The notes under the pieces were generated by a model that saw nothing but the letters and a program-made list of their open reading frames with translations, did not search any database and was not told the DNA's origin. Below, one piece after another: positions 42,774 to 46,316 of a stretch of 64,000 nt of DNA. The stretch lies in assembly GCA_027364655.1 (NCBI GenBank), contig DAHXOX010000071.1, positions 4,938 to 68,937 of the forward strand. Direction: 5' to 3'. The first letter of the stretch is position 1. Each line of letters begins with the position of its first letter. This stretch comes from Paludibacter sp. (GTDB taxonomy: Bacteria > Bacteroidota > Bacteroidia > Bacteroidales > Paludibacteraceae). Position numbers and translations under genes: made by a program.

Positions 42774-42959
42774 ATTGATTTAGTTATTTGTTGAAATGAA
42801 CAGAATCCTCATATCTCTGATCTATTTGTTAGCAAGCTGAGTTTACAATTGACATCAAAGCATGGCTACAAATGTAACAAAAAAAAGAGGACACAAAGTT
42901 CCTCTTTCTTTTGTTCTGAATTTAAAATTCTGATTCAAAGGATAAAGTATCAAAAACAG

Positions 42960-43376
42960 TTAACCAATAACCATTAAATCAACACCTTCAAGCACAGAAT
43001 CACCTTTGGCAACTTTTATTTCAAGTACCTTTCCATCACGATCGGCATTGATGACATTCTCCATTTTCATGGCTTCAAGCAATAATACTTTCTGTCCCGC
43101 TTTCACAACATCGCCCACTTTCACGGCAATGTCAAGGATCACACCGGGAAGCGGAGACTTGATAGCTTCTGCTATTTCGCCTGCTACAGCATTGGATGCT
43201 TTTGAAGCAACAGATACAACAGGACGAACGATAGCTTGAGGCACAGCTTTAACCGGCTTTTCCATCTCAACCTGATAAGCAACGCCATTTACTTCGAGGG
43301 ATGCTACAGAATCTTCAACACTTACAACGTTGACTTTATATTCCTGCCCATTAATTTTATATGAATATTCTTTCAT
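42960..43376 (-). CDS. mmdC: Biotin carboxyl carrier protein (MmdC/1.3S-like)
   Basis: EAMKMEN biotinylation motif, SPLPG, Ala/Pro/Val linker. Confidence 0.9.
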   Translation of the reverse strand: MKEYSYKINGQEYKVNVVSVEDSVASLEVNGVAYQVEMEKPVKAVPQAIVRPVVSVASKASNAVAGEIAEAIKSPLPGVILDIAVKVGDVVKAGQKVLLLEAMKMENVINADRDGKVLEIKVAKGDSVLEGVDLMVIG

Positions 43377-43605
43377 ACCATTATTTTTTATTGTTTACAC
43401 TAAAGACATATGGAACTCGCAAATAATCATGGTTTTATAGTGAAGCCTGAATGAATGCTCGTTTCATGAGTAAATCTTATATTTTACCATTAAGATCACA
43501 TAGCCTCATGCTACATGAAAATAAGTTAGTTAAGTAATTGAATCATTGTGATTACATGAAAATCGATTCCATTTGCATTTGCTGATAACAGCATTCATGC
43601 ACGAG

Positions 43606-43791
43606 TCAATGTTTTTTTACCTGCAAAGGCTGACGCATTAACAATGCCTTGGAACTCCAGGGAGAATAGCCAAAGTTATTATATTGAATGGTCAGCACGT
43701 TGCTTTCGATGTCGTGCACCTCATCAGCCATTTCGTGTAAAGCTATCCCAATGGCAGCCAAAACAGCACCTTCTATTTCTACATTTTTCAT
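43606..43791 (-). CDS. Small soluble protein resembling the C-terminal tail of OadG/MmdD (gamma/delta) subunits
   Basis: AAIGIALHEM..EVHDIESNVLTI....YSPWSSK...LMRQP, as I recall from the Bacteroides OadG C-terminus; no N-terminal anchor region. Confidence 0.75.
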   Translation of the reverse strand: MKNVEIEGAVLAAIGIALHEMADEVHDIESNVLTIQYNNFGYSPWSSKALLMRQPLQVKKH

Positions 43792-43812
43792 AAATTCAAT
43801 AGTTTAGAAATA

Positions 43813-45366
43813 TTACAATGGCAAATTTCCATGTTTCTTTGAAGGATTAACCACCTTTTTGGTAGCTAATTGCTGCAATGCTCTGATCACACGGAAACGG
43901 GTATTTCGCGGCTCAATAACATCATCAATGTAACCATACCGTGCAGCGCTGTACGGATTTGAAAACGCATCACGATACTCTTGTTCTTTTTTTGCAACAA
44001 AAGCTGCCGGGTCTTCTGTGGTTGCAGCTTCTTTAGCATAAAGCACTTCAATAGCCCCTGAAGCGCCCATTACCGCAATTTCGGCAGTTGGCCAAGCATA
44101 ATTCATATCACTGCGAAGATGTTTGGAACTCATCACAATGTAAGCACCTCCATAAGCCTTGCGCAACGTAACAGTGACTTTTGGAACCGTCGCCTCACCA
44201 TAAGCATAAAGCAATTTAGCACCATGCAAAATTACACCGTTATACTCTTGTCCGGTACCCGGCAAGAATCCTGGGACATCCACCAATGTAACCAATGGAA
44301 TATTGAAAGCATCGCAAAAACGAACAAAACGAGCCGCTTTACGCGAAGCATTCGAGTCAAGCACACCGGCAAGCACTCTAGGTTGGTTTGCAACAATTCC
44401 AACAGACATTCCATTGAAACGAGCAAAACCAACAATCATATTTTGTGCATAATCGCGATGTACTTCGAGAAACTCCCCATTGTCGATAATGCTACCAATG
44501 ACTTCGTACATGTCGTATGGTTTGTTAGGATTATCAGGAATCACCTCATTCAAGGCATCGTCCATCCGGTCAATCGGGTCTTCACATGGTTTTAACGGAG
44601 CCTCTTCTAGATTATTTTGAGGAATGAAACTAAGCAAATGACGAATTAAAGCTACGCCATCTTCTTCAGCATCGACAGCAAAATGAGCTACGCCTGATTT
44701 GGAAGCATGTACACTCGCTCCACCAAGTTGTTCTTGCGAAACATCTTCTCCGGTTACGGTTTTTACCACTTTTGGGCCGGTCAAAAACATATAACTGGAA
44801 CCTTTAGCCATAATCGTAAAGTCAGTCAATGCAGGAGAATAAACAGCGCCACCGGCTGAAGGACCAAAAATAGCCGAAATCTGAGGCACTACCCCCGAAG
44901 CCATAATATTGCGTTGGAAGATTTCGCCATAGCCGGCTAATGCATTGATACCTTCCTGAATACGAGCACCACCCGAATCATTAACACCAATTACCGGAGC
45001 GCCCATCTTCATGGCTTGATCCATTACCTTGCATATCTTCAATGCCATGGTTTCAGAGAGCGAACCTCCAAAAACAGTGAAATCCTGAGCAAAAATATAG
45101 ACTAAACGGCCTTCAATGGTTCCACAACCAGTAACCACACCATCGCCAAGATAACTCTCTTTCTCCATGCCGAAATTGGTGCAACGGTGCTGGAGAAACA
45201 TATCAAACTCTTCGAAACTACCCTCGTCAAGCAACATGGCGATGCGTTCGCGTGCCGTGTACTTTCCCTTTTTATGCTGTGAATCAATTCGTTTTTGACC
45301 GCCACCTAAGCGTGCCTTAGCACGCAAATCAATGAGTTCTTGTACTTTATTGAGTTGATTGCTCAT
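43813..45366 (-). CDS. mmdA: Acyl-CoA carboxyltransferase (methylmalonyl-CoA decarboxylase alpha / transcarboxylase 12S / PccB family)
   Basis: [22 protein letters not shown] and KKHGNLPL motifs. Confidence 0.93.
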
Positions 45367-45450
45367 AAGAAATAAATTTTTGATTAGAAATGAGATTCGT
45401 AAAAAAACGAGGGAATACCCTCCGTTATTGTATTTGATGCCGCTATTATC

Positions 45451-45858
45451 TTATTCTGGATGCTCGCAAAGTTCGGTTAAGACGCCAAAAGTAGATTTCG
45501 GATGAAGGAAGGCAATATTCAAACCTTCTGCCCCTTTTCGTGGAGTCTTGTCAATCAATTGCATTCCCTCTTCGGCCAAAAGAGTCAATTGTTCTTGAAG
45601 ACCTTCGACGGCAAAGGCAATATGATGTACGCCTTCGCCTTTTTTCTCAAGGAACTTACCGACAGGGCCTTCTGGATCCGTGGAAGCTAAAAGTTCAATC
45701 TTGGTTTGCCCAATTTTGAAAAAAGCCGTTTTTACTTTTTGATCAGCAACTTCTTCTACAGCATAACATTTGCTGCCTAACAATTTCTCGTAGTACGAAA
45801 TGGCAACGTCAAGATCTTTGACGGCAATGCCAATGTGCTCAATGTGTGATGGATTCAT
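45451..45858 (-). CDS. mce: Methylmalonyl-CoA epimerase
   Basis: HIEHIGIAV, TKIELL, GEGVHHIAF, FLHPKSTFGVLTELCE; VOC fold. Confidence 0.96.
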   Translation of the reverse strand: MNPSHIEHIGIAVKDLDVAISYYEKLLGSKCYAVEEVADQKVKTAFFKIGQTKIELLASTDPEGPVGKFLEKKGEGVHHIAFAVEGLQEQLTLLAEEGMQLIDKTPRKGAEGLNIAFLHPKSTFGVLTELCEHPE

Positions 45859-46316
45859 GTGCAATTTGTTTTTACAACAAGGCCAGATAGAACTCTTCCC
45901 GAAACTTTGAGAATCATTTCATAACTAACCAATTAATTATATTGTATTTACGGAATAATTTCTTTATTCCTCCTTTGCGCACAAAGTTAAGGGAATAATT
46001 ATACACTGCCTAACCGCGAACATAATTTTTTACACACATCCCTGAGAAAATTTGATTGCAAAGATAAGCATTTTTCTATAGAACATTACTATCTCATTTT
46101 CAGTGATTAACAACACATAGCCATTGCCTCCCCGAGCCTTAACACTGTTAAGAAGAACAAAGAAACTTCTTTTTCGAAAGGAAATTCTATCTTTGTCGGT
46201 TCATATCATGCGTTACAAGCCAAATCATAGAATTAAAGCACCTATTCTAAACTTGTTACACTATCTTGATAAAATAAGTATCAATGTTTTTTATCTCATT
46301 TTAACTCAAATTGTTT

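Follow-up and report, generated by a model that had tools for sequence, protein, structure and literature searches.

We analysed a 64,000-nt stretch of DNA (the window) from Paludibacter sp. (GenBank assembly GCA_027364655.1, contig DAHXOX010000071.1, positions 4,938 to 68,937 of the forward strand). A minus-strand operon at window positions 42960–45858, together with one unlinked gene of the same genome, probably encodes a soluble methylmalonyl-CoA:pyruvate transcarboxylase, which would have been derived from a Na+-pumping methylmalonyl-CoA decarboxylase (Mmd) by the loss of the membrane subunits. The operon consists of genes for a methylmalonyl-CoA epimerase (mce), an acyl-CoA carboxyltransferase (CT), a 61-aa protein (p61) and a biotin carrier. 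A preliminary description made from the sequence of the window had read this row of genes, followed by a hairpin and a PAP2 gene, and we recovered all four genes at the same positions on the minus strand; the gene after the hairpin is indeed PAP2 (PF01569), which is unrelated to the operon. The description had also suggested that the organism makes propionate either by Wood–Werkman-type carboxyl transfer to pyruvate or by an uncoupled decarboxylase. The genomic searches support the former, to which we attach a moderate probability, more strongly than the latter.

The CT is 81–85% identical to the alpha subunits of canonical Bacteroidales mmd pump operons. It scored 807 bits against the mmdA model TIGR01117, under the model cut-off of 999, and matched among PDB entries the beta subunit of propionyl-CoA carboxylase (739 bits) and the 12S subunit of Propionibacterium freudenreichii subsp. 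shermanii (hereafter P. shermanii) transcarboxylase (1on3, 605 bits, full length). No other protein of its own genome matched PF01039 or PF03255. The carrier was matched by the NCBIfam models of MmdC and of the biotin carboxyl carrier protein, but under their cut-offs, and it is the sole biotin carrier of the genome; the other three Biotin_lipoyl matches were rejected as carriers because they are two lipoyl E2 proteins and a resistance-nodulation-division (RND) adaptor. The mce gene, of which the reading frame is open from a TTG at 45864, lies upstream of the CT gene, and this arrangement is conserved in nearly all related loci.

The membrane subunits of the pump were searched for in 12 genomes of the genus, namely the own genome, which is a metagenome-assembled genome (MAG) of 257 contigs and 97% completeness, and 11 congeners. 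The genus name Microbacter used here follows the NCBI labels, and the set includes Microbacter margulisiae, closed genomes, and assemblies of 1, 2 and 4 contigs at 99–100% completeness. OAD_beta (PF03977), the membrane beta subunit, was found in none of the 12 genomes, while the family's other genera had it in 12 of 13 cases, and tblastn with two Bacteroidales OadB queries detected no OadB fragment in the own genome at E = 10. OAD_gamma (PF04277), which represents the membrane-anchored delta/OadG subunit, was likewise found in 0 of the 12. Searches for biotin carboxylase (Biotin_carb_C, PF02785) were negative for the own genome and for 10 of the 11 congeners; among 41 Bacteroidales sampled, 26 likewise had no such enzyme. 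When E. coli AccB, AccC and Ppc were used as tblastn queries, no match was obtained in the own genome, in which AccA, AccC and AccD were not found either. The preliminary description had noted the lack of MmdB/OadB and of biotin carboxylase at the locus and had proposed to look for them, and for a full-length oadG, elsewhere in the genome; the lack proved to extend to the whole genome and the genus, with a single congener carrying a biotin carboxylase.

A 5S/pyruvate carboxyltransferase gene, which had also been proposed as a target of the search, was found in the own genome. The encoded protein, P0001, is the only PYC_OADA protein and the only other part of a biotin enzyme that PYC_OADA and HMGL-like searches detected there, and orthologues are present in 11 of 11 congeners. 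It matched Vibrio cholerae OadA (2nx9), P. shermanii 5S (1rqb) and PycB (5ks8) equally, at E values of about 1e-37 (1.9e-37 for 1rqb). Its AlphaFold2 model (pLDDT, the predicted local distance difference test score, of 80) gave TM-scores of 0.81–0.83 against 5S and OadA, and PycB was superposed over the full length. The metal and carbamyl-lysine motifs RDxxQS, KDMAG and HxH do not vary among 18 homologues. An alignment of the C-terminal ~80 residues to the biotinyl domain of close relatives places Q[STA]x-Y of P0001 at the position of their EAMK motif. Since the biotin lysine is replaced, P0001 cannot be biotinylated.

P0001-like relatives fall into three types that are told apart by length, biotin motif and gene context. 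Type 1 proteins are OadA-like, with 612–614 aa and a real EAMK motif, and are encoded in oadG-oadA-oadB operons; type 2 comprises P0001 and its orthologues, which are unlinked; and proteins of the third type, of ~730 aa, have a real biotinyl domain and are encoded in an operon with another acyl-CoA carboxyltransferase, in a gene cluster from which biotin carboxylase is absent. The operon that this ~730-aa paralogue shares with an acyl-CoA carboxyltransferase shows that the P0001 family pairs with such carboxyltransferases in Bacteroidales. Two loci of the third type, L165:1169-7415 (genome G074) and L166 (G109), contain an operon of a 535-aa acyl-CoA carboxyltransferase, an enoyl-CoA hydratase, a 728-aa biotinyl OadA-like protein, an HMG-CoA-lyase-like protein and a CoA-transferase. 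OadB is absent from both genomes, and biotin carboxylase is absent from the cluster of the 728-aa OadA-like gene. Judged by its gene content, this operon looks like a methylglutaconyl/methylcrotonyl-CoA:pyruvate transcarboxylase of a leucine or isovalerate pathway.

Since the own genome encodes one carrier, two carboxyltransferases and no carboxylase or decarboxylase module, transcarboxylation is the only complete biotin cycle encoded. In this cycle, for which we infer both the pairing of the two carboxyltransferases via one carrier and the direction of flux, a B12 mutase and the epimerase would supply (S)-methylmalonyl-CoA, and the CT would shift the carboxyl group of this substrate onto the biotin of the 138-aa carrier with the release of propionyl-CoA. 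Carboxybiotin would then be discharged on P0001, which would convert pyruvate to oxaloacetate; discharge on this protein is suggested because neither a beta subunit nor a biotin carboxylase nor any other biotin-dependent catalytic protein is encoded in the genome. The net reaction would be methylmalonyl-CoA + pyruvate <-> propionyl-CoA + oxaloacetate (EC 2.1.3.1). A Wood–Werkman-type cycle could be closed via malate, fumarate and succinate, and GTP-type phosphoenolpyruvate carboxykinase (PEPCK) may serve anaplerosis. The own genome encodes both methylmalonyl-CoA mutase subunits, MeaB, fumarate reductase, a CoA-transferase, malic enzyme and a BirA-like ligase. GTP-type PEPCK was found in all 12 genomes of the genus (own copy at G000:C247:4123-5196). 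The ATP-type enzyme was found in 27 of 29 other genera sampled but neither in the own genome nor in 8 of the 11 congeners; GTP-type for ATP-type PEPCK is a replacement at the phosphoenolpyruvate–oxaloacetate node in this genus. One congener, G011, has the same gene set, and its P0001 orthologue shares 100% identity with the M. margulisiae record at NCBI; the orthologue of another, G004, is 100% identical to the protein of a MAG labelled 'Microbacter sp.'. M. margulisiae is cultured and, as cited in PMC7565709, was described as propionigenic (IJSEM 2014 64:3936). Since the G011 protein equals the M. margulisiae record, a cultured propionate producer carries the pump-less gene set.

The origin of p61 was revealed by comparison with 80 related loci, which were fetched with the CT as query. 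The usual Bacteroidales operon among them consists of mce, the CT gene, a ~300-aa gene and the carrier gene, followed by OadB. From the N-terminus on, the ~300-aa protein comprises an exported domain, a single membrane helix that weakly matches the OadG family, a charged linker and, as its last part, a conserved tail of ~50 aa. p61 aligns solely to this tail (residues 265–322 of the 322-aa protein of locus L007), and it also matches residues 76–112 of the 121-aa proteins that Pfam assigns to OAD_gamma in sister genera. No Pfam, NCBIfam or PDB match to p61 was detected. The earlier reading of the gene as an OadG-like gene cut down to its soluble tail is thereby borne out, as the helix and everything before it are gone. 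p61 is kept throughout the 12 genomes of the genus, and the helix is lost in every one of them. In one subclade its ratio of nonsynonymous to synonymous substitution rates (dN/dS) is 0.02–0.14, and in seven species of the other subclade there are at most six nucleotide differences, all of them synonymous. Because of the low dN/dS and the synonymous nature of the differences, these data indicate that p61 is a real, functional protein under strong purifying selection. It may act as an assembly or stabilising subunit without a membrane anchor, and it may resemble the small epsilon subunit (MmdE) of Veillonella parvula. In the canonical Bacteroidales OadG/MmdD-like subunit (L007:6535-7503 and other loci), a conserved N-terminal domain of ~200 aa with a signal-peptide-like start precedes the helix, which implies that part of the Mmd pump would lie outside the cytoplasm. 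In sister genera (L005:2834-3565, L002:431-1150), the operon consists of the genes for CT, OadG (121 aa), a carrier of 239–243 aa and OadB; the carrier has two Biotin_lipoyl stretches by Pfam, apparently tandem biotinyl domains.

The same combination of genes occurs beyond the genus. Dysgonomonas macrotermitis, Dysgonomonas sp. HGC4 and two Bacteroidaceae MAGs are without the pump and have the same reduced operon as well as a full-length P0001 orthologue. G030, a genome of another family, is without OadB and has a P0001 orthologue and a short interval between the CT and carrier genes, in which no p61 match was detectable. Paraprevotella has the reduced locus, with OadB elsewhere in the genome. 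When 197 high-quality Bacteroidales species were sampled evenly, OAD_beta was lacking in 45 and a P0001-like protein was present in 66, and about 6% of this order-wide sample had an OadA-like protein without OAD_beta. Among all 201 genomes sampled, a P0001-like protein was present and the pump absent in 13.

Several findings weigh against a transcarboxylase. The curated NCBIfam models all gave P0001 scores well under their cut-offs (246 bits with the PycB model, of which the cut-off is 402), and the protein therefore belongs to a divergent subfamily of which the substrate is presumed. The genes of the two transcarboxylase carboxyltransferases are clustered in Propionibacterium. Such clustering was not seen in the own genome, where P0001 is encoded on another contig, and in none of 110 loci was a P0001 gene found beside the CT operon. 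Transcarboxylation as the sole source of oxaloacetate, which would hold if PEPCK were lacking, was rejected, since the GTP-type enzyme in all 12 genomes provides another route. The reduced operon is not diagnostic by itself, since Xylanibacter (Prevotella) ruminicola has a locus of this kind, in which mmdA is followed by a gene for a hypothetical protein of ~50 aa, by mmdC and by mce, and completes the pump from a second locus, oadG-mmdC-mmdB (PMC11575231). Finally, an enrichment of P0001-like genes in pump-less genomes was rejected: they occur in 13 of 47 genomes without the pump and in 54 of 154 with it. P0001 is thus not specific to pump loss, being about as frequent with the pump as without. 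Where the pump is present, the type 2 protein probably delivers carboxyl groups derived from oxaloacetate to the same carrier and pump. A single step, the loss of the membrane subunits, would then change a decarboxylase of two substrates into a transcarboxylase.

The proteins assigned here to a transcarboxylase may have a mainly anabolic role, which we regard as a tentative possibility and which is compatible with transcarboxylation between methylmalonyl-CoA and pyruvate. The CT, the carrier and the OadA-like protein would make malonyl-CoA from acetyl-CoA without ATP, with the carboxyl group taken from oxaloacetate or methylmalonyl-CoA, and would substitute for the missing acetyl-CoA carboxylase (Acc). 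FabH, FabD, FabG, acyl carrier protein and FabF are encoded in the own genome (contigs C236, C244, C119 and C240) without AccA, AccC, AccD or an E. coli-type AccB. Since genes of fatty-acid synthesis are present without acetyl-CoA carboxylase, the same system may also make malonyl-CoA. The frequent lack of biotin carboxylase in the sampled Bacteroidales agrees with this role, as does the oxaloacetate:acetyl-CoA transcarboxylase of Entamoeba/Mastigamoeba, which makes malonyl-CoA without a biotin carboxylase (PMC8136499). However, the high identity of the CT to the alpha subunits of pump operons speaks against it, the presence of the CT in an operon with mce indicates C3/C4 acyl-CoA substrates, and another source of malonyl-CoA such as malonyl-CoA synthetase could exist. 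That the carrier and the two carboxyltransferases are the only source of malonyl-CoA in Microbacter, and perhaps in many Bacteroidales without biotin carboxylase, is a similarly tentative possibility.

It is unlikely that the operon encodes an uncoupled soluble methylmalonyl-CoA decarboxylase, in which carboxybiotin would lose CO2 spontaneously or via a soluble factor, with no energy conserved and no pyruvate involved. Retention of the alpha, gamma and epsilon-like small subunits together under selection would suit such an enzyme, as would the unlinked position of the pyruvate carboxyltransferase gene. Among known enzymes of this kind, however, the membrane beta subunit catalyses the decarboxylation of carboxybiotin (PMC8473912), and neither this subunit nor a substitute was found. 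A biotin-independent decarboxylase of the YgfG/ScpB type was rejected as well: the sole crotonase-family match to E. coli ScpB in the own genome is MenB, which scored above its own cut-off and is encoded beside menD. Moreover, P0001 offers a competent alternative acceptor, which is kept in every congener and in the four pump-less genomes with the reduced operon. A pump that was missed, with beta and gamma genes in unassembled DNA of the fragmented MAG or with a non-homologous membrane partner, is very improbable, as OAD_beta and OAD_gamma are lacking even in the nearly complete assemblies of one to four contigs and it is specifically the membrane helix that the OadG-like gene has lost throughout the genus.

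The features are listed in Table 1. A terminator-like hairpin between the mce and CT genes interrupts what otherwise resembles a single operon, and no Rfam family was matched in the operon region. The p61–carrier spacer is 25–29 nt long in seven congeners and 82–183 nt in G011, G004 and G008. Its odd length in the window is explained by a dispersed element of ~50 nt in front of the carrier gene (core GCGAGTTCCATATGTC..TAGTGTAAA.AATAAAA), which abuts the carrier ATG. About 20 further copies occur in the genome, nearly always just before a start codon and at the same distance from it. The element had no Rfam match and resembles a dispersed cassette for a promoter or leader.

Table 1. Features of the operon, the unlinked carboxyltransferase gene and the dispersed element. 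Positions are those of the window unless a contig (C) of the own genome (G000) is given.
Feature	Position	Strand	Evidence or remark
mce (methylmalonyl-CoA epimerase)	45451..45858	-	TIGR03081, 149 bits (cut-off 115); Glyoxalase_4 domain
Terminator-like short GC hairpin + T7, between mce and CT gene	45409..45422	-	consensus scan
Acyl-CoA carboxyltransferase (CT), MmdA/PccB/12S type, 517 aa	43813..45366	-	PF01039, 675 bits
p61, 61-aa protein	43606..43791	-	resembles OadG/MmdD-like cytoplasmic C-terminal tail module without membrane helix
Spacer between p61 and carrier gene, 229 nt	43377..43605	-	last ~50 nt are the dispersed upstream element
Dispersed element, ~50 nt	43377..43430	-	
Biotin carrier, MmdC/1.3S-like, 138 aa	42960..43376	-	EAMKME motif; PF00364, 58.6 bits
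Intrinsic-terminator-like hairpin with U-run, operon end	42884..42907	-	minimum free energy -22.5 kcal/mol, z = -3.0
P0001, OadA/5S-like pyruvate carboxyltransferase, 593 aa	G000:C89:22435-24216		PYC_OADA + HMGL-like domains
Dispersed element, further copies	C51, C251, C219 (x2), C199, C129, C119, C97, C94, C79		
Dispersed element, further copies (continued)	C198, C180, C149, C101, C40, C26, C23, C239, C31		

Propionate formation in Bacteroidota is routinely annotated via the Na+-pumping decarboxylase, with mmdA as the marker gene. The present results reveal mmdA without the pump throughout a genus of which the type species is cultured and propionigenic, in Dysgonomonas isolates and in other lineages. 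In our searches of the literature, neither a pump-less Mmd nor a transcarboxylase was found described for Bacteroidales. If the operon and P0001 do form a transcarboxylase, the energy yield and the CO2 dependence of propionate fermentation in these taxa would differ from the textbook Bacteroides scheme, mmdA-based genome predictions of Na+ bioenergetics would be wrong for them, and transcarboxylase would have arisen a second time, from decarboxylase parts. If the system makes malonyl-CoA, fatty-acid synthesis would be tied directly to the propionate/oxaloacetate node, and the Entamoeba enzyme would have in this system a bacterial counterpart that evolved from a sodium pump. The initiation set of type II fatty-acid synthesis without acetyl-CoA carboxylase raises the testable question of where malonyl-CoA originates, and M. 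margulisiae is available in culture.

Among known systems, the Na+-pumping MmdABCDE found in V. parvula and in Propionigenium modestum and the Bacteroidales mce-mmdA-(OadG-like)-mmdC-mmdB operons share with the Microbacter operon the alpha subunit, the carrier, the gene order and the linkage to mce, whereas neither a beta subunit nor a membrane-anchored delta/OadG subunit is encoded anywhere in the genus. The split Mmd of X. ruminicola has the same reduced locus, but its oadG-mmdC-mmdB locus is absent in Microbacter. Among the OadA-OadB-OadG oxaloacetate decarboxylases (Vibrio, Klebsiella, and the Bacteroidales oadG-oadA-oadB operons L143–L145), those of Bacteroidales have OadA proteins with which P0001 has its catalytic motifs in common and an identity of 55–57%. 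These OadA proteins, however, have EAMK and an adjoining oadB, whereas P0001 has neither the lysine nor an oadB partner. The Entamoeba/Mastigamoeba transcarboxylase (PMC8136499) likewise has no biotin carboxylase and combines an acyl-CoA carboxyltransferase, a pyruvate carboxyltransferase and a carrier; it belongs to an anaerobe without acetyl-CoA carboxylase. In contrast to the Microbacter system, of which the function is proposed, this eukaryotic enzyme is fused into one protein and has a carboxyltransferase of the acetyl-CoA carboxylase type, and its function has been shown.

The transcarboxylase of P. shermanii (12S + 5S + 1.3S) resembles the Microbacter system in having a PF01039 carboxyltransferase, a biotin-less pyruvate carboxyltransferase and a small carrier, and in lacking both a biotin carboxylase and a membrane subunit. 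A survey of gut genomes found transcarboxylase in Actinobacteria only (PMC9403272). P0001 differs from P. shermanii 5S in its unlinked gene, its degenerate biotinyl-like C-terminal domain and an identity of 25–26% in the fold alignment, and Microbacter has the OadG-tail protein of 61 aa in addition. Since the CT and the carrier are orthologous to Na+-pump subunits, the Microbacter system originated independently of the P. shermanii transcarboxylase. The kind of enzyme is known; what is new is its apparent composition, in Bacteroidales, from Na+-pump subunits, a biotin-less OadA-like protein and a tail-only remnant of OadG.

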